DNA of 64,000 bases from Planctomycetota bacterium (GCA_965223845.1 CBDCXR010000004.1:1536001-1600000); one strand, 5' to 3'; counted from the stretch's first letter, positions 4,759 to 46,994 are shown. The notes: a model not told the origin generated them from the letters alone. Made by a program: numbers and translations.

Positions 4759-4773
4759 TCTCGCGGGAACACG

Positions 4774-6495: not shown

Positions 6496-6498
6496 TGG

Positions 6499-7833: not shown

Positions 7834-7909
7834 CCCGCTTCGCGTCGTTTGAGAAGGATGGCGTTCGAGCAGGCAGAGAGAAGCGGTGAGACGAAGCGCA
7901 TCTTTCTGA

Positions 7910-31051: not shown

Positions 31052-31056
31052 CGATC

Positions 31057-32712
31057 GTGTTTGGGCCGAAGAGCGGCGTCGGTATCGATCTCGGAGCGCA
31101 GCGAATCCTCGTCTGCGAAACTTTCGCGGATGCGGATGGCGTCCGCATCGCGAGCGCGGTCGCTCTCGATCGGCGGCGCCTCGGGCTCGGCGCAGATGCC
31201 CGCACCGTCGCGAAGGCCGTTGCGAACGCGATGAAGGAAGCTGGCATGAGCACGCGCGGAGTCGTGCTCGGTGTCGGTCAGCAGGACTGCATGCTCCGCT
31301 ACGCGCAGGTCGCACCCGTCGCCTCGTGGCGACTCGACCTCATCATGAAATACGAGGTCACCGAAGTCGCCGAACGGATGGATGAACCCGTCGCGAGCGA
31401 CTTTCGCGTGCTCTCGCTCCCGCGCGAGCCGGGTGAAGATCAGACGGTTCTGCTCGCCCTCACCAAGGAGGCGTTTCTCACCGAGTGGCTCGAAGCATTT
31501 CGCGCGGAGGGGATTGCGATCGAGAAGGCCTATCCGCAGCCGCTCGCGCTGTTCGCCGCGTACGACGCACTCGGACCGGAGATCGACCTCGAGTCGGAAG
31601 ACGACGATGTGACTCTCGTCGCCGATCTCGGCAAGCGCAGCGTCAACTTCGCGATTCTGCTCAATGGAAGACTCGCGTTCGCTCGCAACTCGAGTCTCGG
31701 GGGTGATACCTTCACCGAATCGCTCGCGAAGTCGATGGGGATCAGTCTCGAAGACGCCGAGCGGCTCAAGATCAAGCGCGGCGGCCTCGAGGCGAAGCAG
31801 GGAATACTCGACGACACGGTCGCGCCGCTCCGCGCCACCGGCGGTCAGCTCCTCACGCTGATCCAGTCCACCGTGCGATTGGCGTCGACGCAGATCAATT
31901 TGACGCTCCCGCCGCTCACGCGCGTCGTGACCCTCGGCGGCGGGTTCGGCCTTCGCGGTCTGGATCAGTTTCTCGCGCAGGGTCTTCGCTGCGCGGTCGA
32001 GCCTTTCCGTCCCGCCGGACTCTCGGTCGAGGCCGACGCCGAAGCGGCGATCTCCGGTCGCCCCGCCGACACCGCGACGGCCGTTGGACTGGGACTCACT
32101 CACTTGCGTCAGGCCGCAGGTGCCGAGGGGATCGAGGCGATCTCGATTCTTCCGGGCGAGTACGTTGAGAAGCGGACGTTCCGCGAGCGTACGGTGTTTC
32201 TCTACGCAGCGGGAGCGATCCTCGTCTTGGTTCTCCTCGCCCGCCTTCTGCTCGGGGTCGTGCGGACGAGTGAGGCGAACTCCGTGTTCGCTCACAACCA
32301 GTCCACGCTCACGGAGCTCCAGAGCATGCAGGCGGAGTACGCGGCGAACCGAACCGCCGAAGAAGCGTCTCGCAGTCGAATGAATCGTCTCCTAGCGGAG
32401 GCCGAGCAATCTGCGTTTCAGGCGCTCCTCCTCGATTTTTTCGGGGCGCGGCTCCGACCGGAGCTGCAGCTCCAGCGCGCGTGGCTGGAGCCCGAGGAGT
32501 CCTCGGAAGGGCAGATCGACTACGTCTTTCACGTCGAAGGTCGGGCGAACAACGAAAAGCGGCGCGCGTCGAGCTGGATCCGCGAGATGTTGAGCGACCT
32601 CGAGAGCGAGGAGACCGTTCGCTCGGCCGCGCTCATCGAATCGGCGCCTGAGAAGGGTGGCAGCTGGTACAACTTCTCGGTCGCGATCCGACCGAACTAC
32701 ATCCAGTACTGA
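31057..32712 (+). CDS. pilM: PilM-PilN fusion (actin-like domain, ISILP motif, TM, coiled coil, ferredoxin-like domain)
   Basis: GVGIDLG, ADLG...N, SLGGDTFT, LGGG, TAVGLGL, then AISILP (PilN INLLP-like) and a TM; GTG start just after the upstream stop. Confidence 0.85.
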   Translation: MFGPKSGVGIDLGAQRILVCETFADADGVRIASAVALDRRRLGLGADARTVAKAVANAMKEAGMSTRGVVLGVGQQDCMLRYAQVAPVASWRLDLIMKYEVTEVAERMDEPVASDFRVLSLPREPGEDQTVLLALTKEAFLTEWLEAFRAEGIAIEKAYPQPLALFAAYDALGPEIDLESEDDDVTLVADLGKRSVNFAILLNGRLAFARNSSLGGDTFTESLAKSMGISLEDAERLKIKRGGLEAKQGILDDTVAPLRATGGQLLTLIQSTVRLASTQINLTLPPLTRVVTLGGGFGLRGLDQFLAQGLRCAVEPFRPAGLSVEADAEAAISGRPADTATAVGLGLTHLRQAAGAEGIEAISILPGEYVEKRTFRERTVFLYAAGAILVLVLLARLLLGVVRTSEANSVFAHNQSTLTELQSMQAEYAANRTAEEASRSRMNRLLAEAEQSAFQALLLDFFGARLRPELQLQRAWLEPEESSEGQIDYVFHVEGRANNEKRRASSWIREMLSDLESEETVRSAALIESAPEKGGSWYNFSVAIRPNYIQY

Positions 32713-32714
32713 CG

Positions 32715-33533
32715 ATGAACGAGAGCAAGATCAAGAGGATCTGGGAGGAGAACAAGCGCTTCTTCCTCGTCGCAGGCGCAGGTCTGGCGGTGTTTCTCGG
32801 ATTGAACGCGTGGATCTCTTCCTACCTCGCGGGCGCGGACGCCACGCTGCGAAAGGCGAGCGAGCTCGCCGAGCAGAGCCGAAAGCTCAAGCAAGAGCTA
32901 AAGGGCGGTTACTGGGAGGTGCGCGGGCGCATCGACGACTACGCCGAGCTGGAGAAGCGTCTCCTTGGGGATCTCGCGGTGGCGCCGCTTTCCGAGGCGA
33001 GTCGACTCGACCAGAACGCGCTTCTCGTCGAGTTCAACGAGTCCATCGAAAAGGTCTGGGAAGACGCGCTCAAGATCGCGAATCGCCAAGGGGTCGAGCT
33101 GCCCGAGCGATTGAGCCCGGACGATTTTGGCTACGAGCCGTCGGACGACCTCACGGCGTTTCAACGGTACTACAAATACCTCGCGATCATTCGTCGGGCG
33201 ATGAATGCGATCCTCGAAGCGGACGTGCGTGAGCTCGGTCAGCCGGAGCTCATCGCCGAAGACGTTCATGCCATCGAAAATAATCCGGAGCGAGGTCTTC
33301 TTCTCCGTGTCGTTCGCTTCAGCACGCTCGCGTCGTACGACACGTACGTACGGCTCCTCAAGTCTGTGCAAACGCCGGGAGATTTTCTTCAGGTGCAGAT
33401 CCTGAGTCTCGCCGTCCCCAAGGGGGGAGACGGCAGCCTCCTTCGCGCCGACATGATCTTCGGCACCTGTGAGCTGACGACTGTCGAGCCGCGCGCGAGG
33501 GCCGGTACGCGCGTTCAATTCACTGGCGACTGA
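32715..33533 (+). CDS. PilO/Amuc_1100-like alignment-complex protein
   Basis: Single N-terminal TM, coiled coil, A...GVELP...FGY...L segment, C-terminal ferredoxin-like beta pattern; follows pilMN. Confidence 0.65.
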   Translation: MNESKIKRIWEENKRFFLVAGAGLAVFLGLNAWISSYLAGADATLRKASELAEQSRKLKQELKGGYWEVRGRIDDYAELEKRLLGDLAVAPLSEASRLDQNALLVEFNESIEKVWEDALKIANRQGVELPERLSPDDFGYEPSDDLTAFQRYYKYLAIIRRAMNAILEADVRELGQPELIAEDVHAIENNPERGLLLRVVRFSTLASYDTYVRLLKSVQTPGDFLQVQILSLAVPKGGDGSLLRADMIFGTCELTTVEPRARAGTRVQFTGD

Positions 33534-33551
33534 GGTCGCGGAATCCTTCCC

Positions 33552-33923
33552 ATGAAGCTCAATCGTGAAGTTTGCGCCCTGATCCTAGCGCTCGCGATTC
33601 TGGCGATCGGCCTCCGCGAGATCGTCCCGGGGTTCTTCGCCCCGGCCGGGTCTGTGCAGCTCGTCGACGCGTCGATCCCGAAGGCACGGCGCGACGTCGT
33701 CCCGCGATCGATCCGTTCGCACGTCCGGGACGTCGAGCTCGCTCGCGATCCCTTCACGTTCAGCGAGGGGTGGCAGCGACTCGACGCCTTGCCACTCGAC
33801 CCGCCTCCCCTCCCGCCGGCGCCGCGTCCCTTGCCGCTCTTTTACGGTGCCGAGCGCGCGAGTGAGCGTCACGTCGAGTTCGCCGAACGTCGGATGATTC
33901 CGAAGCGGAAGGAGACCCCGTGA
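33552..33923 (+). CDS. Small membrane-anchored Pro-rich protein at the PilP/GspC position
   Basis: N-terminal TM, RDPF motif (PilP-like), PPPLPPAP; overlaps the next start (GTGA). Confidence 0.55.
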   Translation: MKLNREVCALILALAILAIGLREIVPGFFAPAGSVQLVDASIPKARRDVVPRSIRSHVRDVELARDPFTFSEGWQRLDALPLDPPPLPPAPRPLPLFYGAERASERHVEFAERRMIPKRKETP

Positions 33924-36385
33924 AGCTTCGAAGCGGCCGAGTTTGGTTGGGCGTCTGCGGACTCGTGACCGTTACCGGTCTCGCGCCGTTCCTCCGCGCG
34001 GACGTCGACGACGAGATTCGCCTGTTCGACACGCTCTTTCTCTCCGGTGGTCGCAAGATCGAGGGCACGATTCTGAGCGCCGGGGATCTCGAGACGGCAG
34101 AGAAGATTCTCGTCCAGACACGCTCGGGGCGCGGGCAGTTCGAGCTGGCGACGAAAGACATCGAGCGCATCGTCCGCCGCCGTACGGTGGAAGAGGTCTA
34201 CAAATCGAAGCAGGAGCGCGTTGCCGCCATCGGCGACGAGAGCGAGCGGGCGAACGCCTACGCCGAGCTCGCGCGTTGGTGCAGGGCACCGCGCATCGAG
34301 CTGGATGGTCAGCCGCCTCGGGCGGAGAAGGCGCTCGAGCATTTTCTCGCGGCGCTCGAGATCGATCCGACGCAGCGAGATCTCTACGCCTTCGTACTCG
34401 ACGAGCTTTCCGCCACGGGGAGCCTCGACGAAGCGAGCGCCGAGCGCATCGAAACTGAGTTGCTCGTGGCGGAGCTTGCGCAGCGCGGAGGACTCGATCT
34501 TCCGGAAGTCGTCTTTCGCCGCGGGTACATCATCGCGACTCACGGGCAATCCAAGAACAAAGCCGTCGCCGACTTCCGGCGAGTTCTCGCGAGCGACTAC
34601 GACAATCGCGCCCACCGCCGGACGGCCCGGAAGCTCCTCAGCGAGGCGCTCGTCGAAGCGGGAGATCGAGCTGGAGCGCGGCGGGTGTTCGAAGAGATCC
34701 TCGTCGAGCCGGCGACGGACCCGAGCAACTTCGAGGCGCTCTACGAGCTCGGGCGACTCAGTGCCGGTGACGCCGACCCCGCCGTGAGAGGGCGGGCGAA
34801 AGCTCTTCTCGAGCAGGCGCGCGCGATCCAGCCCGAGTTCGCGCCGATCTACGAGCTCCTCGGCGCGCTCGAGTTTGAATCCGGGAACCACCGCGACGCG
34901 ATGAAGCACCTCAAGGAGGCGATCGCAAAGGATCCGAGCCGCATCGGACCGCAGGTCAACCTCGCCGTCGTTCAAGCGGCCGGCGGCCTCCGATCGACGG
35001 CGACGAAATCGCTCGCGATGATCCTCGGGCAGTCGGCGGGAGCGGATCGCGCTGCGGCGCACGCCGCGCTCGGACGCATCAAGGAAGACGCCGGTGACCT
35101 CGCCGGTGCGATCACCGAGTATCGCGCGGCGGTCGCAGCCGATGAGTCGTTCGTCGACGCGCAGCTCGCACTCGGCGCGGCGCTCGCGCGTGCGGGTGAA
35201 GCCGACGAAGCTCGCCTTGTCGCGAGCGCACTTCTCACGGCGAACCGAGACGATCCCGGAGTCTTCGTCGCGGGAACTCGGATTCTTGCCGAAGCCGAGC
35301 TCGCGGCCGGACAGATCAGCACTGCCACGGCGCATCTCGAGCGTGCGCTCGCGCTCCGACCCGAGGACGCGCATTTGCGCGAGCGTCTCGGTCTCGTTCT
35401 CATCCGGCAGGGGAATCTGGACGAAGCCTACCGTCACCTCGGCGCGCTCGGTTCACTCGAGGAGCGTCCGTCTGCGCAGGCCGCACTCGGGTACTACCAC
35501 TACTCGCGGGGTGAGCTGGCGGAGGCGGCGATCCAGTTCAAGCTCGTCGAGAAGCTGACCCGCGCACAGAAAGCGAGCGACAAAAAAGACCGCGCGCGGA
35601 TGGCGCTGTTCGCGTACGCCCAGGCGAGTCTAGCGCAGCTGCGCGATCTCGCGGAGCTCGAGATTTGGCGGGCGGAGTTCGCGGGCGATGACGCACCGCG
35701 GGTGGATGGATGGACGGAAGTCGAGCGCTTCGGCATCGCGATTTCGCGCGCTGGCGGGCGGATGCTCTTCGCGGGAACTCAACGCGAAGAGGCGGACGGC
35801 GTCACGCTCGCCCAGCTCGATCGCACCGCCGAAAGCGCGTCATTTGATCGCGTGTCGATGCGCGGCGCGGTTCACAGCGGGCGCGTTCGCTTCGGTCTTC
35901 GGATGGAAGGCGAGACGCAGCGCGGTGCCTCGACGGGGATTCTCGTCCACCGCGACTTCGACGGAACCGTGCGGATTCTCGTGAAGGGCACGCGAGGGTC
36001 GTGGAAACCTCTCGAGCCGACCGAGCCGGAAGAGGAAGACGGCAAGGACGAAAGTAGCACGCGCCGGCGCACATCCCGCCGCGCTCTCGTCTACCCGGGG
36101 ACCGTTTCCTGGCCGAACGACTCCGCCTCCCGCCGGCTCGAGATTCGCCGGAGTCCGGAGCCGAAGCTCGGAACTTCCTCACGCGCGACCAAGGACACAT
36201 TCGACGTCGTGCTCGACGGTGAGAACGTCGCGAGCTTCGTTCCCGTGAGCGGCCTCTCACGCGCGAAGCTCCGATTCTCGATCTCGGCGCAGACCGACGC
36301 GGAGGGGAACGAATTCTCCGTTTCCGTCGACGAATTCCATCTCTACCGAAAGCAGCCACGGGCAAAGCGGCGTTCGCGCTATTAG
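33920..36385 (+). CDS. Exported TPR-repeat protein with N-terminal small beta domain and C-terminal beta sandwich
   Basis: Signal peptide, DTLFLSGGRKIEG...IERI domain, many TPR-like repeats (ALEIDP, AIAKDP, ALALRPED), beta-rich C-terminus. Confidence 0.78.
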   Translation: MKLRSGRVWLGVCGLVTVTGLAPFLRADVDDEIRLFDTLFLSGGRKIEGTILSAGDLETAEKILVQTRSGRGQFELATKDIERIVRRRTVEEVYKSKQERVAAIGDESERANAYAELARWCRAPRIELDGQPPRAEKALEHFLAALEIDPTQRDLYAFVLDELSATGSLDEASAERIETELLVAELAQRGGLDLPEVVFRRGYIIATHGQSKNKAVADFRRVLASDYDNRAHRRTARKLLSEALVEAGDRAGARRVFEEILVEPATDPSNFEALYELGRLSAGDADPAVRGRAKALLEQARAIQPEFAPIYELLGALEFESGNHRDAMKHLKEAIAKDPSRIGPQVNLAVVQAAGGLRSTATKSLAMILGQSAGADRAAAHAALGRIKEDAGDLAGAITEYRAAVAADESFVDAQLALGAALARAGEADEARLVASALLTANRDDPGVFVAGTRILAEAELAAGQISTATAHLERALALRPEDAHLRERLGLVLIRQGNLDEAYRHLGALGSLEERPSAQAALGYYHYSRGELAEAAIQFKLVEKLTRAQKASDKKDRARMALFAYAQASLAQLRDLAELEIWRAEFAGDDAPRVDGWTEVERFGIAISRAGGRMLFAGTQREEADGVTLAQLDRTAESASFDRVSMRGAVHSGRVRFGLRMEGETQRGASTGILVHRDFDGTVRILVKGTRGSWKPLEPTEPEEEDGKDESSTRRRTSRRALVYPGTVSWPNDSASRRLEIRRSPEPKLGTSSRATKDTFDVVLDGENVASFVPVSGLSRAKLRFSISAQTDAEGNEFSVSVDEFHLYRKQPRAKRRSRY

Positions 36386-36437: not shown

Positions 36438-37175
36438 ATGATGAGAACAACTGCTCTGTTTGCCGTTCGACATCAAGACGAGATCCCGCGGGTGGAAGCG
36501 GGATCGATCGCGCGACGGAGGCGTCGTGGAGATCGGTCTCGACGAGTGGCGGGTTTCACTTTGATCGAGATGCTAGTCGTCATCAGCATCATCTCGATCC
36601 TCATGGGGGTCGCGCTCGTGGGAATCAACTCCGCGCGGGAGGCCGGTGACTCGAGCGCCGTCGAGACCGACCTACAGTTCCTTCGCTCCGCGATCGAGAA
36701 ATTCAGCGTTGCGATGGGTGACTATCCGCCGACACGGCTGAGCGATCTCGATCCCAAGCTGAAGGGAAATCCCCTCAACGAAGGCAACGAGAGCCTCTTC
36801 GCGTGCCTCTTGTCGCGACGCGGCGGCGGTCCGCACGCCGAGCTCGCAGAGGACCGTTGGGAGAATCTCGACGGTGACTCGCTCACGACGGAACAGCTCG
36901 GCATCGTCAAGAAGGAGCTCGACTGGATTCGCGGGAACGGCAATCTACTCGAGTACTGCGATCTCTGGGGACAACCCTATATCTACTTTCACCACCGCGA
37001 CTACGGCACGGCTCGGCGCGTGCGTCTTGCGGACGGTTCGGAGGTCGAGGTCGCCGCGCAGAAGAATGCGCAGACAGGAACATATTTCGCACCGACGACG
37101 TTTCAGCTTTGGTCGATCGGACCGAACGGAATCAACGAAAACGGCGGAGGCGACGATCTCGTCTCGTGGCGATGA
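36438..37175 (+). CDS. GspG-like (pseudo)pilin
   Basis: G|FTLIEMLVVISIISIL, GDYPP, DLWGQPYIY...FQLWSIGPNG...DDLVSW T2SSG-type C-terminus; start uncertain. Confidence 0.88.
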   Translation: MMRTTALFAVRHQDEIPRVEAGSIARRRRRGDRSRRVAGFTLIEMLVVISIISILMGVALVGINSAREAGDSSAVETDLQFLRSAIEKFSVAMGDYPPTRLSDLDPKLKGNPLNEGNESLFACLLSRRGGGPHAELAEDRWENLDGDSLTTEQLGIVKKELDWIRGNGNLLEYCDLWGQPYIYFHHRDYGTARRVRLADGSEVEVAAQKNAQTGTYFAPTTFQLWSIGPNGINENGGGDDLVSWR

Positions 37176-37302: not shown

Positions 37303-38685
37303 ATGAGGCGGATCGACATCCGGACGCGAGCTCGGTCGAACCCCGAAGGGGGAACGCGCCACCGCCGCCATCGTGCGCGAGCGTTCGGCGCGGCGGCGGC
37401 GCTTCGACGACGATCCGTCGGATTCACGCTCGCCGAGCTCCTCACGGTCATCGGCATCGTCGCGATCATCGGCACCCTCGGAACGGGAGCGTTCCACGTT
37501 GCTCGCCGGAGCTACGCGCTCAACGCGACGGCAGGAGAGCTGCAGGCCGTATTGCGAGCGGCGCGAAACTCCGCGCTTCATGCGGGCAGCCCGGCGTTCG
37601 TCGTCGTAGACCCGGTCGAGAGAAGCGCGCGCGCCTACGTGTACGACCCGGTCGGTGAGTGGAGCTTCGACGAAACTCCGAACTCGTTCTCGGTTCGGCG
37701 CGAGAAGGAAGTTCGGACGAGCGCCGTATCGGGAAAGGTCGGACGGGGTCGATCGTTCGCGGGCGGTGGCCATATCGATTGCGGGAACTTACCGCAGTTT
37801 CAGCTTCGTGACTCGATTCTCATCGAGGCGTGGATCCGCCACCGCGAGTTCCGAACGATTCCCCCCGACCGCCGGGTGAAGGATCGACGCCGCCGCCTCG
37901 AGAGGCGACGAACGCCGGCGCGCGCGGCGCCCGACGCGTCCTTCGCGATCGTCGAGAAGGCCGGTGCCTACTCGCTTGCGCTTTCGAAGAAAGGGCGATT
38001 GCGCGGCTCGATCGGAAACTACACGGTCGAGACGACGGACGCCGTCGTTCCTCCCGGTCGCTGGATCTTCGTGAGCCTTAGGTACGACGGCGAGGAGATC
38101 GACCTTCGCTCCGAGGGCGTTCCGCGCCGTACGCGGCCGTTCGCGGGAGCTGCCGGACTAACGGGCCTCGGATCGATCGCCGGTGCGCGCTCCGAAGCGT
38201 CGAGCTCAACGCAGCCGGCTCGCGCGAGTGCGAAGTCGAAAGTCCCCAGCTTCGCCCCCGTCACGAGCGCTCCGCTGACGATTTCTTCGGCCACCTCTCC
38301 GTTCAACGGCGAAATCGACGAAGTGCGCGTGGCTGGATCTGTCGAGCCGGTCGAGTTCACGTGGTCGGATGGCGAGCTCATCCTCGGGTGGAAGAAGGTG
38401 ATTCGGTTCGATCGGCGCGGCCACCTCGACGGGCGGAGTCACGACGGCGAGGTGCGGCTTGTTCTCGTCGAGCTGCCCGACTTCGCATCACGCGGCACAA
38501 GCACGTCGGTGGTCGACTTCGGGGGAACGTTCGACGATTGGCGCGCACGATGGAAGGAGCCGCCGCCGGACCTCACCGAAGAAAACGAGGAGAGGAAGTT
38601 GCTCGCGGTGTACGCGAGCGCGCGGAAGATCGCGATCTCGATCGGACGGCTGGGCACGATTCGCTGGGAGGAGCTCGAGCCATGA
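37303..38685 (+). CDS. GspH/FimU-like minor pilin with inserted LamG/ConA-like domain
   Basis: G|FTLAELLTVIG, L...LRAARNSA; LamG motifs (GEWSFDE, GKVGRG, ILIEAWI, GRWIFV.LRYDG, FNGEIDEVRV); IRFDRRG and ISIGRLGTI GspH-type C-terminus. Confidence 0.82.
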   Translation: MRRIDIRTRARSNPEGGTRHRRHRARAFGAAAALRRRSVGFTLAELLTVIGIVAIIGTLGTGAFHVARRSYALNATAGELQAVLRAARNSALHAGSPAFVVVDPVERSARAYVYDPVGEWSFDETPNSFSVRREKEVRTSAVSGKVGRGRSFAGGGHIDCGNLPQFQLRDSILIEAWIRHREFRTIPPDRRVKDRRRRLERRRTPARAAPDASFAIVEKAGAYSLALSKKGRLRGSIGNYTVETTDAVVPPGRWIFVSLRYDGEEIDLRSEGVPRRTRPFAGAAGLTGLGSIAGARSEASSSTQPARASAKSKVPSFAPVTSAPLTISSATSPFNGEIDEVRVAGSVEPVEFTWSDGELILGWKKVIRFDRRGHLDGRSHDGEVRLVLVELPDFASRGTSTSVVDFGGTFDDWRARWKEPPPDLTEENEERKLLAVYASARKIAISIGRLGTIRWEELEP

Positions 38686-41600
38686 ACCGTGCGTGCTGCG
38701 AGGAACGACAAGTCTCGCCGGCGGAACGAGAGAGCTTCGACGCGCGCGGCGTAGCGCTCATCATGGTCCTTCTCGTCCTCACGACACTCGCCTTGCTCGG
38801 CGTTCCCTTCGTCGTTTCGATGACCCTTCAAGACCGTGAGAGCCATCACTTCGCGGGACGAGTGAGCGCGCGGCTCGCGGCCGAGGCGGCGAGGAATCAC
38901 GCGATCGCAAAGCTGCAGAACACTGTCTACTCGGTGGAATGGGAGCGAGAAGCGAACGCGCTCGAGCCCGAGCGCCCGAAGGGCAGTCGAAAGCGCGGCA
39001 CGACGGTCGGCCGGCGCCGGTTCGGAGCGGAGTCGAAGCTCGGCTCGCTCGATCGAGTGCGGAGAAACGTCGTCCGCGGCGATCTCGGGGAAACGAAGCG
39101 CCGGCTGAGCGACGGCCTCCGCCGCGCCGCGAGACTGCGGGGCGACGACGAGACCAACGAGAACCCGAACGCGCTCCCCGAATACATGCGGCTCTCCGAG
39201 AAGGGGCCGTCGGAGCGCGAGGTCGACTCGTCATCGGAGATCGAAACCGAACTGCCGGAGAAGATCCCGCTCCCGGCGCGAGCCGAGAGCACCAAGGGAC
39301 CTGCGGCAAAAAAACCTGCGAGTACTCGCACGACCGTCGGCCCGAGTCCGGCGGCGACCGTTAGCCTGCGCGGAGGCGTGTACGCCGACGCACGCGTGAC
39401 GGACGAACAAGGGAAGATCAATGTCAACACGGCGCCGCCGCCGGTCATCGCCGGCGTACTCGGCGTCTCGGAGCTCGCGTACGAGCTCGGGCCGGAGGAG
39501 ACCCGCCTTTCGCTCGTCGACGCGAGTGAGTTCCGCGGCGACCACGACGCCAAATCGATCGACGGAGCCGTCGTCCTCTGGGATCCAGGGGGCGGTGGGA
39601 TGGAGGTCGTGACCTATCGGCGAAAGATCGGTACGCGACTCGAGGATTGCTTCCGCGGTGCGTTTTTCTCGCTTCCCTTCCGCCGGGGTCGGTTCCGTGA
39701 AGGCACGATGGTGTTCGACCTTCGCGGCTGGAAGATCGCGTACCACCGTCTCTGGGCGCGACGGGAGGGAGGCTTCCATCCGGGTGACCTCACGCGGTTT
39801 CGGACGCTCGAGGAGCTGCGCGACATCGCGAACTGGCAGGTCGCGTCGCTCTTCTTGGGTCGTTTCAGCGGTCGCGGTCTCACCGCCGCGTTTCTTCGCG
39901 AGAACGGCATCAACGTCAAGAAGGTGAGTGAGCTCGGACTCGACCCCTTTCTCTTCGTCGACGAGGTCGAGACGGACGATCGAGAACGCAAGGCACGGCT
40001 TCGGACGGCGGAGCGAGAGCTCAGGCGGCTTCGATTCTCGGCGAATCTGGTGAAGCGACTGAAGAAAGCTCGCGGCGGCGACGTCGTCGTCGAGCTCGCG
40101 GCGCGACTGACCGGCGCGACAAGTGAAGACGTGAAGACGCTCGAGAAGGCCGTTGAACAATCACTTGCCGGCGGGAAACGCCAAGTGCCGAAATTTCCGC
40201 GCGGCTACGTCCGACGCTGCCTCGAAGATCTCGCCGCCGCATACAACACCGAGGGCATCGAAACGCTCCTTCCCGGCGACGTCGAGCGGCTCCGTCCGTA
40301 CCTCACTTGCCACTCGTGGGTACCGGTCACGTGGTCCGAGGGACAAGCCCTCCTCAGTGACCTCGTCGCCGGCGGAGACCAGGACGCACGCCTTCCGCGT
40401 GCGAGCGAATTCAACGCCGGAACGATCGTTCGCATTCGCAGCCGGAAGGATCCGACTTACCTCGAGTTCAATGAAGTGAGCTCGAGTGGGCCGAATGGCA
40501 TCACCCTCGCGTTTCCGGTTCGTCGCACGCTGCGGGCGTACGACGCGTATCTGCAGGCGCTTCAGCGCCACCCGGTGAACGTAAACACGGCTTCTCGGCG
40601 CGTCCTTCGGGCTGCGCTCGCGGGGTTGAAAGGAGAAGACAAGAAGGCCCGCGTCACGCTCTACGAAGCCGACGGAATCGCCGGACGGATCGTCGGCGCG
40701 CGGCCGCTCGACGGTTTCGCCGCCCTCTATCGGCTTTTCGACGAGGCCGGGGAGAACGACGACGCGCTCGACGACGAGGATGTCAAAGTCCTCCTCACGA
40801 ACGCAGTCCAGCCAACGCACGCTTCGCTCCGGGCGTCCTCGATCGGGTTCACGTTTCGAACGGGGGACGTCTACTCGATCGACTCCCGGGCCGTGGTCCG
40901 CGCGCCGAGCGGACGATCGGTGGCTCAGGTTCAGTTCCGAGATCTGTGGGAGGCGTCCGCACCCGGCACTCGCTCGATCGGGCTCCTCACGCAGAGGGAT
41001 TTCAGCGAAGGAAGCTACCTCGTCGACCCGCTCCTCGGCGGGCGATTTCCCGATTTTCATCACCGGTTCCTCCTCGCGTTCAGCGGAACGAGAGGGCGGT
41101 GGCTCGATTCGCGTCCGCTGGTTCTTCACCGGGCGCCGCGGCACTTTGCCGCCGGGGACTTGGGTAGCCTGCGGCTTCTTCACTCAGAGAGTGTGGAGGG
41201 ACCGCCCGGGTTCGTCATCGATCGGATCCAGCACTTCCGGGACACCTACGACGGCCTCGAGCTCGAGGCGGGCGAGCCGTACGCGATCGCGTTCGGCGCC
41301 GGTACGAGCGATCTTTCGACCGTTCCCGCGGGGATCGAGTTTTGGCTCCGCATGTCCACCTACCCGACCGAGCGCTCCGTCGACGGTCACATGGTGCTCT
41401 TCTCGACGGGGGACGATCCCGAGCGGAACCGCATCGCCCTCCTCTACGATCAACGTCGCGGCGCGTTTCTTCTTCGAGTCTACGACGCTTCGCTTCCCGA
41501 CCCGTCGATGCGGAGTGTCCGCGACGGAGGACCGTACCTGGAGATCTCCGCGTTCCGGCCACTCGAACTCGAGACGTGGTACCAGATCCGCGCGGTCTGG

Positions 41601-44600
41601 GACGGGACCTACGGTGGTGGGTGTCAGCTTTTCATCGACGGAGTGCCCGCGGGCGAAAACAACCTCTCGGCCGAGCTGATCAGCGCGATCCCCGCGCCGG
41701 GCGAGCGCGACGCGCGGGCGACGTCGCTCGCGGTTCGCAACGGCGAGCGCTTTCCGCGCGAGGGGGCCGTCGTCCTCGGGGGCGAGATCTTCGAGTACGT
41801 ACGAAGCGGAAACTCGCTTCAGATTCGGCGCGAGCCGAAGTCTTCGTGGCAGCTCCAGCCCGACAAGCTGAACGACGCGATCCCCGCGCTCGGAAACCGG
41901 GCGCCGCGGCTCTGGTACCGCGATCTCGATGCGGTGAAGATCGGTCCCGGCGGCGGGCGAATTCCGGCGCCACCGGACGAAGACCGTCCGCGCGGGAGCG
42001 GGGGCACGGGCGGTAGCGGCGGGACCGGAGGACGGGGGAAGCGCGAGGGCGAGCCGTCCCTCACGGCGAAGGCACTCGGGCAGACGGTACCTCCCGGCGG
42101 AGGGGGAGCGGGACCCCGCGGTCCCGGAGGAACCGGGCCCGGCGGCGGCCTACCCGGCGGCGGGGGGCCGGGGGCCACACTTCCCCTCGATCGAGTCGAC
42201 GTCATGCGAGGTCCGTGGAACCGGCGCGGATCGACCGGTGCGGCGCACGGCGCCGGGACGCAGGTGTCCCTCCACGGTTACTCTCTCAAAATCCGGCGTA
42301 AGCTCCGCCGATCGAACGGCGAAGAAGCCCAGACGGACGGACTGGTCTGGGGGCGCGGAGGGCGTCAGCTCGGCGACCCGCTCCCCGCGTTCCATTTCCC
42401 TCCTGGCACGCACACGATCCTTCACTACGAGATCGGACCCGGTGAGGTGGGGCCGAGCCAAGAGCGATATCTGATTCCGCTCTTTCACCTCGACGACGCC
42501 GCGGGGTTTTGGGACGACTCGTTTCTCGGTGGATACGGCTCGAGCCACGCGATGGGCAATCTGAGCGTCGCGCTTCCGGGAGCGGCCGGGCGCGTCGCCT
42601 CGGACTACTACCAGAGCCGGGGAATCGTGCTCGTGTCGAACGTCCCGGAGTTCGAGTTCGAGATCGTGGGGAACGGCAGTGCGATCATGACTTGGAGCTC
42701 GAGCGGATCGTTCCCGCTCTTCTATGAGAAGGTGCCGCTTCCGCCTCAGTACGCACAGGCACTCGGCGCTGATCCGCAGGTGCAAGTGAACGGCTCCATC
42801 ATGGCGCTCAAGATCGTCGGCGGGTATGCGGGAAGTCAAGCCGACGGCACCGGCGCGACGGCGTACGACCGCATCCTCACGAAGACCTGGCAGGCGGTTC
42901 AGGAAGCGGAGAAGTTCCTCGCGCAGTTTCCCGGGCAGTCGGGAAAGCTGCGTTGGCGTTTCGGTTACCCCGTGGTCCAGCGGAGCCTGATGGCTGACGG
43001 CTCGATTTCCGACCGCTACCCGCCGACCGGGATCCTTGAGCTGCGCGGAACGCCTGCGCCGTGGGAAACGTGGCGACGGGGGTCAGCGGGGCAGTCGGTG
43101 TTCGGCCGGCACCCGGAAGATGTCGTCGAATGGATTCGGTACGTCGACATCACGCCGCATCCGAGCGGCGGAGAGCTCTTCGTCGGGCGTATTTCGCGCC
43201 GTAGCAACTTTCGCGGCTATCCCGAACGCGATCTCGAGCTGAAGCGGCAGCTCGATCACGAACGAAGCGAGCCGCTGCGACTCGTCATGGAGCTCTCCGA
43301 GGGCGGCGCCGGTTACGGCGACTACGTCACGATCGCGACGAACGATCCGCTCAAGTACGAACCGAAAATCTACCGCGTGTTCAAATCGTTCGAGCACACC
43401 GACGGCAGATTCTTCGTCTCGCTCTACGAGACGAACTCAGCCGGTCAAGACATTCCGTCCGCGATCCAGGCGTTTCGCTACGACTACACCGCCGAAGAGA
43501 ATCCGCGGCTGGTTAAGTTCCCTTCGTGGACCCTACCTCAGATCGGGACGGGGACACTCACGTTTTTCTCCGAAGGGCAGGCGGCTTCTTCGTCGATTCG
43601 TCGCCGAACGGGCAGCAGTGTCCGCAATCGTCGCCAGCGGCGGAGCGAGGACGAGCCGACGGGAATCACGATCGACGAGATCAAGCGTTACTACAATCCT
43701 AGCGTGCCGTCGAGCCAGGCCGGCGGTTCGAGCGTTCGTTTCGTCGTGGCGCCGCTTCCGCTCCGGCTGGAGCGATCCGGCAGCAACCGGGCGATGGTCT
43801 CGGGATCGATTCCCGCGGGAAAGGCGATCACTCCATCGAGTCCGCTCGAGGTGCTCGTTGTCTCGCGGAGCACGGGAGGCGTCGTTCTGTTCGCCCAAGG
43901 CCAGAAGGAGGGCCTCCTTCGCATCGGCGACGAGCTCTTCTACTGGGAAGATCCGCGCGGCGATGGCGGCGAAGGGACGACTCAGGGAGTCGGAGGGCAG
44001 GGAGGTCAAGGGGGCCAGGGCGGGCAGGCCGGAGGGGGACGACTCACCGGGATTCGTCGCCCGACGAGCAACCCGAATCAAAACCAGAATCAGCAGAACA
44101 CGATTCAGCTCTACCGGAACGAACGCGACCCGCTGGCGCGTATGCTCGTGATCCCGCGAGTCACGGCATCGGTGAGTGGTCACTTCGAGCCGGAGGGATT
44201 TGCGCGGATTCAAGGCAATGACGCGGAGATCTCGCGCTTTTACGAGACGTTCTACTACAACCGATTTGGTGGGGGGAGCTTTTCGAATTGCCTCGGCGGG
44301 CAGTTCAACACTCCGCTCCTTCTTCAGAGCTCGAAGCTCCATCGCGGCGCGCCCATCGTCAACGTCACGCGGCGGATCCGCCTCGTCGCGCGGAGTCTTC
44401 TCGGCACCGAGCGCCGCACGCACTCGCTCGGGGACGCGGTGTCCTTCGTCCCCTACGTCCGTGCGAGCCCGATCAGCGGCCCGATGACGCACGATGGAAT
44501 TCGACTGAAGCGCGCGGAGCTGTTTCCCTCCCCGGGCTACCTCATTCTCGATGGCGGGCACCCGACCGCGCCCTGGGAGATCGCGGCTCATCTCGGGGCG

Positions 44601-45167
44601 CGAGGCGAGGGAGTGCTCGCGCGACCGCGCAGCGAGACGGGTGAAGGGATCTTCCGCGCCGCCTTCGGTACGCCGCAGCGTCCCCTCTCCCGCGACCACA
44701 TCGCGATCGAGCTCCCCTTTCGCTATCCCGACCGCTACCAAGGTGGGATCGACAGCGAGGAGCTCGCGTACTTGCAGAAGAGTTACCGCATCCCGGGGGC
44801 GCGTTGGCGCGCGCTCGAATGGCGGGAGCGAGAAACGGACCTGCGCGACCGTCTCGTCGACCTCGTCGTCGTCGCTCGCTTCGACGGCGCGCCCGAGTGG
44901 GACGCGGAGATCACGAACGAACCGGGCGGACTCTATCTCTTCGAGGACAAGAGCCGGAGTCGCCGGGAAGACCCTCGCTTCGAGCTCGACCGCTTCGCCG
45001 ACGAGATGGAGATTCGCGTCTACTTCCGGTACCGCCCCGGGGCCTACCGCCGAGTGAACGAGGACGTGTGGTCGAACGATTGGAAACAGACTCCGATCCT
45101 CGATTTCCTCAAGATCGAGTACGAGAAGGCAGGAACGAATTTGCGCCATGAGATCCTTCCCTTCTGA
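38682..45167 (+). CDS. Giant (~2161 aa) GspK/PilX-like minor pilin with LamG and repeated beta modules
   Basis: RG|VALIMVLLVL (no Glu5, typical of K/PilX), ARLAAEAA..HA, DEQGKINVNTA and HPVNVNTAS GspK motifs, LamG (GIEFWLR...WYQIRAVWDG...LFIDG), Gly-rich linkers; ATG overlaps the upstream stop. Confidence 0.82.
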   Translation: MNRACCEERQVSPAERESFDARGVALIMVLLVLTTLALLGVPFVVSMTLQDRESHHFAGRVSARLAAEAARNHAIAKLQNTVYSVEWEREANALEPERPKGSRKRGTTVGRRRFGAESKLGSLDRVRRNVVRGDLGETKRRLSDGLRRAARLRGDDETNENPNALPEYMRLSEKGPSEREVDSSSEIETELPEKIPLPARAESTKGPAAKKPASTRTTVGPSPAATVSLRGGVYADARVTDEQGKINVNTAPPPVIAGVLGVSELAYELGPEETRLSLVDASEFRGDHDAKSIDGAVVLWDPGGGGMEVVTYRRKIGTRLEDCFRGAFFSLPFRRGRFREGTMVFDLRGWKIAYHRLWARREGGFHPGDLTRFRTLEELRDIANWQVASLFLGRFSGRGLTAAFLRENGINVKKVSELGLDPFLFVDEVETDDRERKARLRTAERELRRLRFSANLVKRLKKARGGDVVVELAARLTGATSEDVKTLEKAVEQSLAGGKRQVPKFPRGYVRRCLEDLAAAYNTEGIETLLPGDVERLRPYLTCHSWVPVTWSEGQALLSDLVAGGDQDARLPRASEFNAGTIVRIRSRKDPTYLEFNEVSSSGPNGITLAFPVRRTLRAYDAYLQALQRHPVNVNTASRRVLRAALAGLKGEDKKARVTLYEADGIAGRIVGARPLDGFAALYRLFDEAGENDDALDDEDVKVLLTNAVQPTHASLRASSIGFTFRTGDVYSIDSRAVVRAPSGRSVAQVQFRDLWEASAPGTRSIGLLTQRDFSEGSYLVDPLLGGRFPDFHHRFLLAFSGTRGRWLDSRPLVLHRAPRHFAAGDLGSLRLLHSESVEGPPGFVIDRIQHFRDTYDGLELEAGEPYAIAFGAGTSDLSTVPAGIEFWLRMSTYPTERSVDGHMVLFSTGDDPERNRIALLYDQRRGAFLLRVYDASLPDPSMRSVRDGGPYLEISAFRPLELETWYQIRAVWDGTYGGGCQLFIDGVPAGENNLSAELISAIPAPGERDARATSLAVRNGERFPREGAVVLGGEIFEYVRSGNSLQIRREPKSSWQLQPDKLNDAIPALGNRAPRLWYRDLDAVKIGPGGGRIPAPPDEDRPRGSGGTGGSGGTGGRGKREGEPSLTAKALGQTVPPGGGGAGPRGPGGTGPGGGLPGGGGPGATLPLDRVDVMRGPWNRRGSTGAAHGAGTQVSLHGYSLKIRRKLRRSNGEEAQTDGLVWGRGGRQLGDPLPAFHFPPGTHTILHYEIGPGEVGPSQERYLIPLFHLDDAAGFWDDSFLGGYGSSHAMGNLSVALPGAAGRVASDYYQSRGIVLVSNVPEFEFEIVGNGSAIMTWSSSGSFPLFYEKVPLPPQYAQALGADPQVQVNGSIMALKIVGGYAGSQADGTGATAYDRILTKTWQAVQEAEKFLAQFPGQSGKLRWRFGYPVVQRSLMADGSISDRYPPTGILELRGTPAPWETWRRGSAGQSVFGRHPEDVVEWIRYVDITPHPSGGELFVGRISRRSNFRGYPERDLELKRQLDHERSEPLRLVMELSEGGAGYGDYVTIATNDPLKYEPKIYRVFKSFEHTDGRFFVSLYETNSAGQDIPSAIQAFRYDYTAEENPRLVKFPSWTLPQIGTGTLTFFSEGQAASSSIRRRTGSSVRNRRQRRSEDEPTGITIDEIKRYYNPSVPSSQAGGSSVRFVVAPLPLRLERSGSNRAMVSGSIPAGKAITPSSPLEVLVVSRSTGGVVLFAQGQKEGLLRIGDELFYWEDPRGDGGEGTTQGVGGQGGQGGQGGQAGGGRLTGIRRPTSNPNQNQNQQNTIQLYRNERDPLARMLVIPRVTASVSGHFEPEGFARIQGNDAEISRFYETFYYNRFGGGSFSNCLGGQFNTPLLLQSSKLHRGAPIVNVTRRIRLVARSLLGTERRTHSLGDAVSFVPYVRASPISGPMTHDGIRLKRAELFPSPGYLILDGGHPTAPWEIAAHLGARGEGVLARPRSETGEGIFRAAFGTPQRPLSRDHIAIELPFRYPDRYQGGIDSEELAYLQKSYRIPGARWRALEWRERETDLRDRLVDLVVVARFDGAPEWDAEITNEPGGLYLFEDKSRSRREDPRFELDRFADEMEIRVYFRYRPGAYRRVNEDVWSNDWKQTPILDFLKIEYEKAGTNLRHEILPF

Positions 45168-46560
45168 CGCCGCCGCCGCGCGGCGGCGGAGGAGCGATCT
45201 CGGCGACCAGCGAAGCTTGGCGTGGTCGACTCCCGACGGCTCGACGTCGCAGCGGCTGCCTGGCTGCCGTTCGGCCGGTTACACGCTCATGGAGATCATC
45301 GTCGCGACGGGGCTCCTCGTCGCGCTCGGCGGGGGACTTGTGACTCTGCTCCGGGAGGGCGTGGGGATTTGGGAAACCGCGAGTGAGCGAGGCCGCGTGT
45401 ACGAGGAGGCGCGGGCGGTGCTCGACCTCATCACCGAGGACCTTCGGTCGACGGCGATTCGCGCGCACAGCTCGGCGGACGATTCGTGGATACGCTTCCT
45501 CGCGGATGCGGTTTCGCCCGAAACTCACGGCAAGCAGAAGTCGGAGTTCCGTGCCGTGCAGCGCCTTCGCTTCGTGCGGACGACAGGCGGTGAGATGGCC
45601 GACCCGATTCTCCGTCACGGAGGGAAGAAGCTCGCATCGCGCACTCCGCTTTACTACGACGGGTCGCCGCTCTCGGGGGCCGCGGAATCCGGACTTCTTC
45701 GTCCGGCGGCCGGGACGATGGAAGTTCTCTACATGCTCGATCCGCGTCAGGATTCACGCACTTTGTGGCGTGCGGTGCGAGCGCCGGTCGGAGGGGCGGA
45801 CTCTCTCTTCATCGACGCCAACGTCGCTCCCCCGCTAAAGGCCGTTACGCCGCCGAAGGCTCCGGCGAAACCCGCGGGCAGCGCAGCGACGAGCGCGACG
45901 GATCCCACGGCCAAGACGACGGCCCCGCCGCCCGCGCCGCCGCCGTTCTACTTGAGCCGCTTCGCGACGCCGGTCTCGGAACAGGTCCTCTATGTCGGCT
46001 TTCGTTTCTGGACTCGCAGCACGACGACGTGGGCGGAAACGGAGAGCACGAGCGCTCGAGCCGCGACCGTAGCCGTGGGGCCGAGCTGGTACTGGGACTC
46101 GACTCGCGCGCTTCTTCGACCGAAGTCGAGAACGCGAACGACGAGGACGGGATCCGTCGAGGACGCGAGCGACGACGTCTTTCCGGAGTTCGTCGAGGTC
46201 ACGCTCGCCCTCGAGCCGAAGGAAGAGGTGCTCGGCCCTCGGCTCACGGCGCCGATGACGGCACAAGATTCGACGATTCAGCTGTCGACGCCGCTCGATC
46301 TCCCGGAACGCGCCGGCGGAAACTACGTCCTCGTGGGGAACGAGTGGATCGCGGTCGAGCGCCTGTCGGGATCGACCCTCGCAGTGCGGAAAGGCGGACG
46401 CGGCGTGCGCGGCTCCACGCCATCGGCGCATTCGCGCGGGACCCGCGTCCGGAGCGGGATCGAGTTCCGGCGAGTGGTCGCCATTCCGAGCTACCGCACT
46501 GGGTCGGAGCCGCCGAAATCGACGCGACGCACGCTGCGAAAGCGAGGACGGGGACGATGA
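45148..46560 (+). CDS. GspJ/PilW-like minor pilin with inserted C-terminal beta module
   Basis: G|YTLMEIIVA, A..VLD.I.EDLRS, EVLY.L...LWRAV, FPEFVEVTL...FRRVVAIP. Confidence 0.8.
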   Translation: MRSFPSDAAAARRRRSDLGDQRSLAWSTPDGSTSQRLPGCRSAGYTLMEIIVATGLLVALGGGLVTLLREGVGIWETASERGRVYEEARAVLDLITEDLRSTAIRAHSSADDSWIRFLADAVSPETHGKQKSEFRAVQRLRFVRTTGGEMADPILRHGGKKLASRTPLYYDGSPLSGAAESGLLRPAAGTMEVLYMLDPRQDSRTLWRAVRAPVGGADSLFIDANVAPPLKAVTPPKAPAKPAGSAATSATDPTAKTTAPPPAPPPFYLSRFATPVSEQVLYVGFRFWTRSTTTWAETESTSARAATVAVGPSWYWDSTRALLRPKSRTRTTRTGSVEDASDDVFPEFVEVTLALEPKEEVLGPRLTAPMTAQDSTIQLSTPLDLPERAGGNYVLVGNEWIAVERLSGSTLAVRKGGRGVRGSTPSAHSRGTRVRSGIEFRRVVAIPSYRTGSEPPKSTRRTLRKRGRGR

Positions 46561-46994
46561 TCGCCGTGACGCGTCGATTCGGAGGTTTCACCGGGTCACA
46601 GGGCTTCTCGCTTCTCGAAGTGCTGATCGCCATGTTCGTGCTCTCGGTCGGAGCGGCGAGTGTGATCTCGCTCTTCGCCGCCGGCTCGTCGACGCACCGC
46701 CGCTCCGTCGATCGTACGCGCGCGGCACTCGTCGCGGAGCAGGTCATCGCCGAGGCTGCGATCGCCTATGTCCCGGGCCGCACGGCGGCCGAGATTCCGG
46801 GAGTCGTTCAAGGCCGGCTCCCCGCCGTGATCGACGGCTACCGATTCGACCTGACGGTAGCGCATCCCCAGGGAAAAGAGTGGCAGCCGTCCGAGCTCGT
46901 CGTCCACGTCGCCGTGCGCTGGCAGGAGAGTGGTCAAGCGCGAGCCGAGACGTTCACGACGATCCTCCTTCCGCGCGCGCCGGCGATTCGCTGA
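46557..46994 (+). CDS. GspI/PilV-like minor pilin
   Basis: G|FSLLEVLIAMFVLSVG, A.LVAEQVIAE, V.V.VRW; ATG overlaps the upstream stop. Confidence 0.85.
   Translation: MIAVTRRFGGFTGSQGFSLLEVLIAMFVLSVGAASVISLFAAGSSTHRRSVDRTRAALVAEQVIAEAAIAYVPGRTAAEIPGVVQGRLPAVIDGYRFDLTVAHPQGKEWQPSELVVHVAVRWQESGQARAETFTTILLPRAPAIR

Follow-up and report, generated by a model that had tools for sequence, protein, structure and literature searches.

A giant GspK/PilX-class minor pilin of Planctomycetota, probably a tip adhesin, with repeated modules shared with phage tail proteins

Main

One gene in the window, by which we mean the whole 64,000-nt stretch of planctomycete DNA that was analysed, is likely to encode a modular minor pilin of giant size, which belongs to the GspK/PilX class and serves a planctomycete type IV filament machine as its tip adhesin. 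The protein joins a GspK-like pilin fold to a LamG domain, seven copies of a small β-barrel module and a terminal β-sandwich (Table 1). Judged by sequence profiles, this module is the one found, frequently in extended tandem series, in the tail fibres and the baseplate wedge and hub proteins of phages and in the GTA megatron. About half of the Planctomycetota genomes sampled contain relatives, and the gene sits among minor-pilin genes in an operon that recurs across loci.

Table 1. Positions of the giant pilin gene, its domains and modules, and neighbouring genes in the window
Feature	Position (nt)	Strand	Details
A24 prepilin peptidase, PilT-like and PilB/GspE-like ATPases, PilC/GspF, sensor kinase, sigma-54 response regulator	1048..11030	+	
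FHA protein, PilM-like protein, two ORFs in PilN/O position, TPR protein (Tgl/PilW-like)	28430..36385	+	upstream operon genes
GspG-like major (pseudo)pilin	36438..37175	+	Pfam N_methyl E 1.2e-8; NCBIfam GspG E 9.1e-11, below cut-off
GspH-like minor pilin with LamG-type domain	37303..38685	+	NCBIfam XpsH/GspH E 3.7e-6 to 1.5e-5
Giant GspK/PilX-class minor pilin gene (probable)	38682..45167	+	2161 aa plus stop; one open frame
Prepilin-type leader and hydrophobic α1 helix	38682..38939	+	leader residues 1-23; helix to ~86; no Glu at +5
GspK-like pilin fold	38745..41129	+	residues 22-816
First motif, KINVNTA	39414..39434	+	residues 245-251
Module M1	39483..39731	+	residues 268-350; inserted in GspK fold
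Second motif, PVNVNTA	40572..40592	+	residues 631-637
LamG/concanavalin-like domain	41130..41666	+	residues 817-995
Module M3	41715..42299	+	residues 1012-1058 and 1174-1206; split by Gly/Pro-rich insert
Gly/Pro-rich disordered insert splitting M3	41856-42200	+	residues 1059-1173; pLDDT <50
Module M3b	42561..42779	+	residues 1294-1366
Module M4	42963..43289	+	residues 1428-1536
Module M6	43878..44459	+	residues 1733-1760 and 1893-1926; interrupted by Gly/Gln-rich stretch and M7
Module M7	44157..44321	+	residues 1826-1880; nested inside M6
Module M8	44487..44723	+	residues 1936-2014
C-terminal β-sandwich	44724..45164	+	residues 2015-2161
GspJ-position minor pilin	45148..46560	+	470 aa; N-terminus weakly matches Verru_Chthon cassette protein C
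GspI/PilV-like minor pilin	46557..46994	+	NCBIfam gspI E 3e-7, PilV E 1e-6

Pilin gene and GspK-like fold

An earlier note, made from the sequence alone, had read a single pilin ORF of ~2160 aa at 38682-45167. A single open frame indeed spans 38361..45167 on the plus strand and encodes 2161 aa from the ATG at 38682, which shares the sequence ATGA with the stop of the upstream pilin gene. Cleavage is predicted at G23|V24 within ...DARG23|VALIMVLLVL..., so placed that the hydrophobic α1 helix follows and position +5 is Met and not Glu, the K-type N-terminus (G|VALIM, no Glu5) that the note had proposed. The family consensus in this region is rG(m/v)AL(l/i)MV, and the predicted structure has a helix at residues 13-79. 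The NCBIfam model T2SS_GspK (NF037980) matches residues 22-81 (E 1.6e-8) with 34.4 bits, under its cut-off of 130; with GspK models, four other family members score 25-43 bits. Weak GspK family matches are nevertheless consistent, being found in the giant pilin itself and in 4 of 5 other members scanned. Assignment to the GspK/PilX class also holds by position, the gene lying between GspH-like and GspJ/GspI-like pilin genes in the conserved operon.

The pilin part has the three-dimensional GspK fold, a pilin sheet with an inserted α domain, and its closest solved folds are XcpX and GspK. Within residues 22-816 the fold holds several inserts: a disordered charged stretch (~97-231), module M1 and a helical domain. 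The two INVNTA motifs placed by the earlier note at ~39402 and ~40568 were found close by. Near the first, 13 sequences all share D241-K245, A251 and P252; at the second, the same 13 sequences keep R629, H630, P631, N633 and N635. Pfam T2SSK (PF03934) begins at the second motif, matching residues 632-650 with profile positions 1-19 (E 1.6e-4) at 22.4 bits, below the curated gathering score of 24.2.

By the Pfam match or LG fold that defines LamG (Laminin_G_3, PF13385), the giant pilin carries such a domain, assigned to a region that covers the ~41330-41655 originally suggested for it. At the other end of the protein, the C-terminal β-sandwich is the best conserved part of the family; ESM Atlas returned scores of 0.79-0.80 with this domain, under the lead threshold.

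Seven homologous modules, two of them interrupted

The modules are ~60-80 aa in size and were compared by hhalign on sub-alignments built from 47 sequences. Of 21 module pairs, 19 match at 92-98% (E down to 2.5e-13), and the weakest are M3-M7 (63%) and M4-M7 (48%), whereas ten control segments of the giant pilin stay at or below 5% against everything. M3 matches M1, M3b, M4, M6 and M8 at 96-98%; M3b matches the other modules at 92-97%, M4 five modules at 92-97%, M6 the others at 94-97%, and M7 matches M1, M3b, M6 and M8 at 93-97%. A profile-profile comparison based on 47 sequences was needed for a clear signal: with a 13-sequence alignment, sliding-window HMMs run against sequences gave marginal results (best off-diagonal iE 0.0017). 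A candidate extra copy, M2 (residues 566-630), was rejected, as it reached at most 12% to the modules and at most 0.5% to phage copies.

The repeats are thus real, at the count of about seven that had been suggested, and the four copies located in the earlier note, together with the nested one, are M1, M3, M6, M7 and M8. Two arrangements described there are also borne out by comparison across the family. The copy said to be split by a Gly/Pro insert (~41670-42273) is M3, which is contiguous and 69-90 aa long in 16 of 25 diverse family members, making the insert lineage-specific. The copy said to enclose another (~43885-44450) is M6, with M7 inside it; M7 is absent (0-5 residues) in 10 of 25 diverse members, and there M6 measures 57-83 aa. 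Both the split of M3 and the nesting of M7 in M6 are real.

A module shared with phage tail, baseplate and GTA proteins

The module has the consensus FP..G......E.I.Y....G..L....RG..GT....H..G..V over ~60-70 aa, common to phage and GTA proteins and the giant pilin. A profile of phage copies was taken from proteins that bear independent phage-tail marks. Against these 22 copies, all seven positions of the giant pilin match at 94-98.5% (E 1.3e-7 to 2.3e-15, profile match), with 98.3% for M3, 97.8% for M3b, 95.7% for M4, 97.9% for M6 and 94.1% for M7, and the controls reach at most 0.5%. Among the homologues' copies (n=74), PHROG matches name virion structural protein (33/74), baseplate wedge subunit (22), tail protein (18) and tail fiber (17), and 5/74 match Pfam Rcc01698_C (PF23666), the C-terminal family of the GTA 'megatron'; Rcc01698 is the RcGTA megatron protein in the available text of PMC7296036. 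The phage and GTA association proposed in the earlier note therefore stands on these three results. The note's further suggestion, a pilus tip recruited from phage hardware, would imply one particular direction of transfer.

Library proteins matching the module profile at E<=1e-3 number 12,188. Among the top 150 matches, 119 are also hit by one or more of the family's profiles (for the N-terminus, K-motif, LamG or C-terminus); 31 are non-family, and all 8 of those scanned have PHROG tail or virion matches. Four of these 8 also carry phage domains outside the module: P0078 matches phrog_9851 (E 4.5e-90) and has a Peptidase_S74 chaperone, and others are P0153 (central tail fiber J), P0026 (tail spike) and P0038. 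A module-only protein matches 72 phage records, 65 of them from Synechococcus phages and annotated as baseplate wedge initiator or subunit.

The phage link is transitive, running through profiles and models, because the window's own copies have no direct PHROG or tblastn match. The whole giant pilin matches 0 PHROG families at E<=1, its seven copies give nothing meaningful at E<=10, a tblastn search of 50,697 phage records with the protein gives no match, and IMG/VR contigs scanned with the family alignment hold no relative. Against PDB sequences the whole-protein profile finds nothing meaningful; the best module match (E 0.14) is non-significant alone and was used because structure pointed to the same residues. 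On the matched residues, 479-560, the module would correspond to part of the JBD30 hub gp53. Foldseek with the C-half model returned no PDB match at E<=1e-3, phage tails heading the rows at probability 0.08 and TM <0.11. Against BFVD, the half-models gave 2 matches at E<=1e-3 (probability 0.11-0.20, TM <0.1). None of these PDB or BFVD rows was used. The BFVD matches were driven in part by Gly-rich 'collagen' proteins.

Family distribution and operon

Full-length homologues (n=12) measure 1955-2226 aa, and a search of genome contigs yielded 93 relatives. As a floor estimate, 146 or more of the 301 Planctomycetota genomes sampled, and 118 or more of 237 genera, contain relatives, which are annotated 'hypothetical protein' wherever any name is given. 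Of 48 loci examined, which came from closed genomes as well as many MAGs, 46 have uninterrupted frames, 1377-2235 aa long.

The operon order FHA-PilM-orf-TPR-G-H-K-J-I recurs across loci, and tblastn on 76 loci detects FHA in 41, PilM in 49, TPR in 41 and the GspI/PilV-like pilin in 45. The GspH-like pilin, whose start is uncertain (ATG 37303 or GTG 37207), matches Pfam Laminin_G_3 at E 6.4e-6, just under the gathering score. An eighth module copy lies in the GspJ-position pilin (nt 46255-46452); the A4 profile finds it at iE 1.9e-11 when all six frames of the window are scanned, and this match is kept in 38 of 41 loci. A complex prediction of the giant pilin (residues 20-820) with the I-like pilin scored 0.66, and a control in which chain 1 was exchanged came out nearly as high, at 0.64. 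The operon contains no secretin gene, and no gene of PilY1 type was seen there; elsewhere in the genome there are eight matches to secretins and eleven of GspE/PilT type.

Proposed function and alternatives

From homology we infer a location at the pilus tip, and the protein is probably a large adhesin at the end of the fibre. The A24 prepilin peptidase from the same window would cut it after Gly23, and the α1 helix would then hold it in the inner membrane. It would build a priming complex with the minor pilins of I-, J- and H-like type, the G-like major pilin would polymerise on that complex, and the giant pilin would therefore end as the fibre cap. Past the pilin fold lie ~1350 residues, comprising LamG, six modules and the terminal sandwich. 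These may then jut from the tip, along with M1 and the one module that the J-like pilin carries, to give an elongated, flexible adhesin of several domains. Its ligand is most likely a glycan, a suggestion based solely on fold resemblance (LamG and a CBM-like sandwich). A counterpoint to the cap reading is that a 230-kDa protein would have to pass an outer-membrane channel.

The protein might instead be the GspK of a true T2SS, its cap borne on a short pseudopilus and confined to the periplasm, which in planctomycetes is enlarged. There it would offer exoproteins a docking platform or work like the head of a piston, and it would not be an external adhesin. The family models of the five pilins do lean towards T2SS names (GspG, GspH/XpsH, GspI and GspK), as do the nearest solved folds, XcpX and GspK. 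We nonetheless regard this as unlikely: the assembly protein matches PilM_2, of T4P type, the TPR protein is similar to Tgl/PilW, the window has regulators like PilS/PilR and a retraction ATPase like PilT beside PilB/PilC and the only Peptidase_A24 match in the genome, no GspD, GspC or GspL-type gene was found in the operon, and tandem fibre-type modules with lectin-like domains suit a reach-out adhesin better. It is much less probable still that the protein tips a DNA-uptake or other non-adhesive pilus, like ComZ of Thermus, with extra domains that bind DNA or another non-glycan ligand; the ComZ match reflects only the common GspK-like fold, there is no β-solenoid, the operon has no competence genes, and the extra domains belong to lectin and phage-fibre types.

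The chance is negligible that the phage-like part is an artefact of this one genome, produced by chimeric assembly or by fusion of a pilin gene with the tail gene of a prophage. Unusual size and phage-type modules might suggest it, and nothing further does. The reading is already refuted by the architecture shared, uninterrupted, by MAGs and closed genomes alike, by the number of genomes with relatives, by the place of M1 inside the pilin fold, by the empty IMG/VR scan and by the surroundings of 46 loci, where flanks of at most 10 kb on each side (less at contig ends) show only the module match of the J-like pilin. The ORF, for which the earlier note had named a chimera as a risk, is genuine.

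Starting from the tip adhesin, a bolder and rather doubtful extension is that the K and J pilins together work as the cell's own equivalent of a phage adsorption device, mounted on a retractable fibre. It is similarly speculative that the tandem β-barrels, LamG and terminal jelly-roll would catch specific polysaccharides, or glycans on the surface of other cells, and that retraction would reel them in. If so, the giant pilin would be the ligand-binding end of planctomycete fibres, which have been linked to the binding of complex glycans and biopolymers (PMC11131199, available text), and specificity would evolve by module shuffling, as in phages.

These results define a large family that has so far been annotated only as hypothetical where named at all. 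They extend the modular-pilin idea seven-fold in scale and to the GspK/PilX cap, and add cellular pili to the structures built from a module that was hitherto labelled solely in GTA proteins and in tail and baseplate proteins of phages. The gene is a candidate for target binding by planctomycete fibres, and the nested and split copies offer a natural system for studying domain insertion and module exchange between phages and cell appendages.

Comparison with known systems

In the literature covered on Planctomycetota pili, GspK, minor and modular pilins, tail fibers and Verru_Chthon proteins, neither the family nor phage-tail modules in pilins are described; supplementary lists such as Dataset S1 of PMC8179133 may include related proteins. 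The established concept nearest to our protein is the modular pilin, in which binding modules are grafted onto a pilin and are probably tip-exposed (PMC8179133). PilB and PilC of Streptococcus sanguinis, CofB and ComZ likewise combine a pilin with grafted modules, including lectins of concanavalin/LamG type (Raynaud et al. 2021, PMC8179133), and the giant pilin fits the definition, a pilin module plus domains not specific to pilus biology, with LamG, modules and sandwich following residues 22-816. The survey's most extreme case, in its available text, has 860 residues, and an IPR012902 signature was required; that text mentions no phage-tail module, whereas here seven copies, nested or split in part, ride on a GspK-class carrier and one on its partner.

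GspK caps pseudopili together with GspI and GspJ, according to the same source (PMC8179133). Compared with GspK/XcpX of T2SS and PilX of T4aP, the giant pilin is about seven times longer, has the M1 barrel within its fold and a C-terminal extension of 1350 residues, and stays below the curated cut-offs of the GspK models NF037980 and PF03934. Verru_Chthon cassette protein A (TIGR02600, profile length 1296) is also long, with a GspK-like N-terminus, and stands beside the prepilin-type proteins C and D, to which the J-like and G-like pilins show weak N-terminal matches; it matches the giant pilin, however, over residues 23-81 only, at 18.8 bits against a cut-off of 332.3, and none of 5 other family members scanned.

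With phage and GTA proteins (phrog_4406, 2885, 708, 1101 and 11439; PF23666 Rcc01698_C; JBD30 hub gp53) the giant pilin has the module in common, but its carrier is a cellular pilin and not a virion, and other phage tail domains are absent. PilY1/PilC of T4aP, a large adhesin, non-repetitive plus modular, on the minor-pilin tip complex (PMC8179133, available text), is not itself a pilin and docks via its C-terminal β-propeller; in the giant pilin, by contrast, the putative adhesin is fused directly to a GspK/PilX pilin.

A giant pilin gene across Planctomycetota

The giant K-like pilin, a GspK/PilX-class protein, lies in one open frame on the + strand of the window (38361..45167), where its start ATG at 38682 shares ATGA with the stop of the preceding pilin gene, giving 2161 residues; G+C is uniform over the region, at 0.64-0.67. 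A word-indexed search returned 12 full-length homologues (1955-2226 aa, 35-48% identity), with "hypothetical protein" as their sole source name and two named organisms, both Planctomycetes/Planctomycetota MAGs. Scanning one genome per species gave 93 relatives, nearly all from Planctomycetota MAGs. Of 48 near-full-length loci examined, 46 have a frame unbroken over 1377-2235 codons, and one other has N. Across an even sample of the phylum, a match (E<=1e-10) is present in at least 146 of 301 genomes, or at least 118 of 237 genera, and no relative was found in IMG/VR viral contigs. These unbroken frames and this distribution rule out the assembly chimera that the earlier note had allowed for, and an artefactual gene is excluded.

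At the N-terminus, ...DARG23|VALIMVLLVLTTLALLGVPF, position +5 is Met, not Glu. The NCBIfam GspK model covers residues 22-81 (E 1.6e-8, far under its cut-off), and a Pfam T2SSK match at 632-650 (22.4 bits vs 24.2) begins precisely at the second of two NVNTA motifs, K245-INVNTA and P631-VNVNTA, both invariant or nearly so across the family. A LamG/LNS-type jelly roll spans residues 817-995, with PF13385 present in 5 of 13 homologues. Residues 97-231 (window 38970-39374), after the alpha1 helix and before the first NVNTA motif, form a highly charged, disordered insert rich in Arg, Lys and Glu, which most family members lack (alignment occupancy 0-0.2).

Features of the pilin operon and core-machinery loci (window nucleotides) and modules of the giant pilin (residues)
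Feature	Position	Remark
A24 prepilin peptidase, PilT-like and PilB-like (MshEN) ATPases, PilC, PAS sensor kinase and sigma-54 response regulator (PilS/PilR-like)	1048-11030	T4aP-type core set
Sigma-54 activator, FHA and GAF domains	26154-28271	upstream
FHA protein, 873 aa, two FHA domains	28430-31051	upstream
PilM_2-type protein		upstream of giant pilin
Two ORFs, PilN/O position	32715-33533, 33552-33923	no Pfam/NCBIfam match
Tgl/PilW-like TPR protein		upstream of giant pilin
GspG-like pilin		upstream of giant pilin
GspH-like pilin, LamG-type domain	37303-38685	Laminin_G_3 E 6.4e-6, just below gathering score
GspJ-position pilin, 470 residues	45148-46560	downstream of giant pilin
GspI/PilV-like pilin		after J-position pilin
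M1	268-350	mutual homology, hhalign
M3	1012-1058+1174-1206	mutual homology, hhalign
M3b	1294-1366	mutual homology, hhalign
M4	1428-1536	mutual homology, hhalign
M6	1733-1760+1893-1926	mutual homology, hhalign
M7	1826-1880	mutual homology, hhalign
M8	1936-2014	mutual homology, hhalign

Seven homologous modules

Because internal similarity was marginal with the first 13 sequences, we aligned the giant pilin with 46 locus-derived homologues, 47 sequences together, and compared sub-alignments of eight candidate copies and ten control segments, all pairs by hhalign. Seven copies are mutually homologous, with probabilities of 92-98% in 19 of 21 pairs (E down to 2.5e-13; weakest, M3-M7 at 63% and M4-M7 at 48%), and the controls reach <=5% against everything. 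The repeats proposed from sequence reading are thus real, and the proposed pattern equals the consensus of 74 compact copies, V.....FP...G......E.I.Y....G..L..G..RG..GT....H..G..V. The eighth candidate, M2 (566-630), failed the comparison with the modules and gave <=0.5% against phage copies.

Copies that had been read as split or nested proved to be real evolutionary states among 25 diverse family members. In 16 of these M3 runs unbroken over 69-90 residues, which makes the Gly/Pro-rich insert at 1059-1173, modelled at pLDDT <50, lineage-specific; M7 is absent from 10, and there M6 is compact, at 57-83 residues.

Relation to phage tail and baseplate proteins

No PHROG match was obtained with the whole giant pilin and no meaningful one with its seven copies scanned singly, and tblastn against 50,697 phage records found none. 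The phage link is strong at the profile level. Scanned one by one against PHROG and Pfam, the 74 copies from the giant pilin and its homologues matched phrog_4406 (virion structural protein; 33/74, best E 1e-11), phrog_2885 (baseplate wedge subunit; 22/74, best E 4.5e-12), phrog_1101 (tail protein; 18/74), phrog_11439 (tail fiber protein; 17/74) and phrog_708 (baseplate wedge subunit; 14/74). Five of the 74 also matched Pfam PF23666 Rcc01698_C (best E 7.2e-6); Rcc01698 is the baseplate protein called "megatron" in the Rhodobacter gene transfer agent, and its C-terminal part binds the tail fibre (PMC7296036).

A profile of the 74 copies matched 12,188 of 1.84 billion representative proteins at E<=1e-3 and 347 at E<=1e-30. 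Among the best 150 of the 12,188, 119 belong to the giant pilin family, as judged by HMMs that we built for the family's N-terminal, K-motif, LamG or C-terminal regions. Among the remaining 31 are giants, 3849-7980 residues long, that contain 10-29 copies; in P0016-P0025, P0146 and P0148 these are in tandem, without a pilin N-terminus, and the sole informative source name is a hypothetical protein of a Candidatus Firestonebacteria MAG. All eight non-family proteins scanned from the 31 match PHROG tail or virion families at E<=1e-5, and four also bear phage domains outside the module: P0078 (tail fiber phrog_9851, E 4.5e-90, with Peptidase_S74 and CBM_5_12), P0153 (central tail fiber J), P0026 (tail spike) and P0038 (virion structural phrog_1645). 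An alignment of 22 module copies, solely from these four and from P0085, whose phrog_1101 tail-protein match may fall on the module itself, matches all seven module positions at 94.1-98.5% (E 1.3e-7 to 2.3e-15), with the ten controls at <=0.5%. A module-only library protein matches 72 phage records; 65 belong to Synechococcus phages, which label the feature "baseplate wedge initiator/subunit", and two to Roseobacter phages. The PHROG, PF23666 and direct profile matches together bear out the earlier association of the module with phage tail, baseplate and gene transfer agent proteins.

Predicted structures of the best-modelled copies, M1 and M8 (separate jobs; pLDDT 71-90 and 57-84), both match the same set of phage chains. 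The best PDB match of the module profile is JBD30 residues 493-555 (E 0.14, full-length motif alignment), a stretch reached by structure search as well. Within its limits, the modelled structure agrees with the sequence link, and a small barrel that readily takes insertions would be in keeping with copies nested and inserted as they are here.

A probable pilus operon with a candidate tip

The gene order recurs in homologous loci: tblastn matched G in 60, H in 59, J in 49, I in 45, PilM in 49, FHA in 41 and TPR in 41 of 76 loci, many of which are truncated; the first PilN/O-position ORF was matched in 29 and the second in 10. The sigma-54 activator and FHA protein directly precede the pilus genes, syntenic in ~30-41 loci, an arrangement that hints at phospho-threonine-dependent control of the operon. 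The core set, which may serve the pilin operon, is encoded 17 kb upstream of it, and the peptidase of the set is the genome's sole A24 match. The operon contains no secretin gene; eight secretin matches lie elsewhere in the genome. At 59622-63182 (-) the window encodes a double AAA+ protein of ClpB type (1186 aa), in which ~390 extra N-terminal residues precede Clp_N.

Of 822 fragments from all six frames of the window, the module profile matched two, one in the giant gene and one in the gene of the J-like pilin. The J-like pilin bears one C-terminal copy (nt 46255-46452, iE 1.9e-11). Among 41 loci that extend far enough downstream, 38 retain this copy, and the presumed tip complex thus has the module on two of its subunits; no other gene with it was found in the flanks of 46 loci (<=10 kb each side, less at contig ends). 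The GspH-like pilin is enlarged, at ~430-460 aa. With a LamG-type domain on the H-like pilin and modules on K and J, extra domains are present on three or more of the four minor pilins.

By homology with GspK/PilX, the giant pilin would be cleaved after Gly23 and would join the I-, J- and H-like pilins in a complex that primes polymerisation of the G-like pilin, to end up at the fibre's far end. PMC8179133 describes GspK as a cap formed together with GspI and GspJ, and modular pilins as probably tip-exposed. The family names lean towards a periplasmic T2SS cap instead, a reading we consider unlikely given that PilM_2, the Tgl/PilW-like TPR protein, PilT and PilS/R favour a pilus; that the giant pilin is a ComZ-like DNA-binding tip is very unlikely.

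The earlier suggestion of recruitment from phage adsorption hardware presupposes one direction of transfer. The module is abundant in phage and in cellular proteins. Unrelated pilin-like proteins also bear it, namely P0110 (1218 aa; classical prepilin N-terminus with Glu5, seven copies) and P0029 (1091 aa; pseudopilin-like N-terminus, 6 copies), so its use on pilins is wider than the GspK-like family. The giant pilin family is phylum-wide and unannotated, and its member here is a concrete candidate for the end by which planctomycete fibres bind. In the literature searched, we found no description of this family or of phage-tail modules in pilins. Modular pilins are already known, and NCBIfam TIGR02600 describes an uncharacterised long GspK-like family, outside which the giant pilin falls (18.8 bits vs 332.3).
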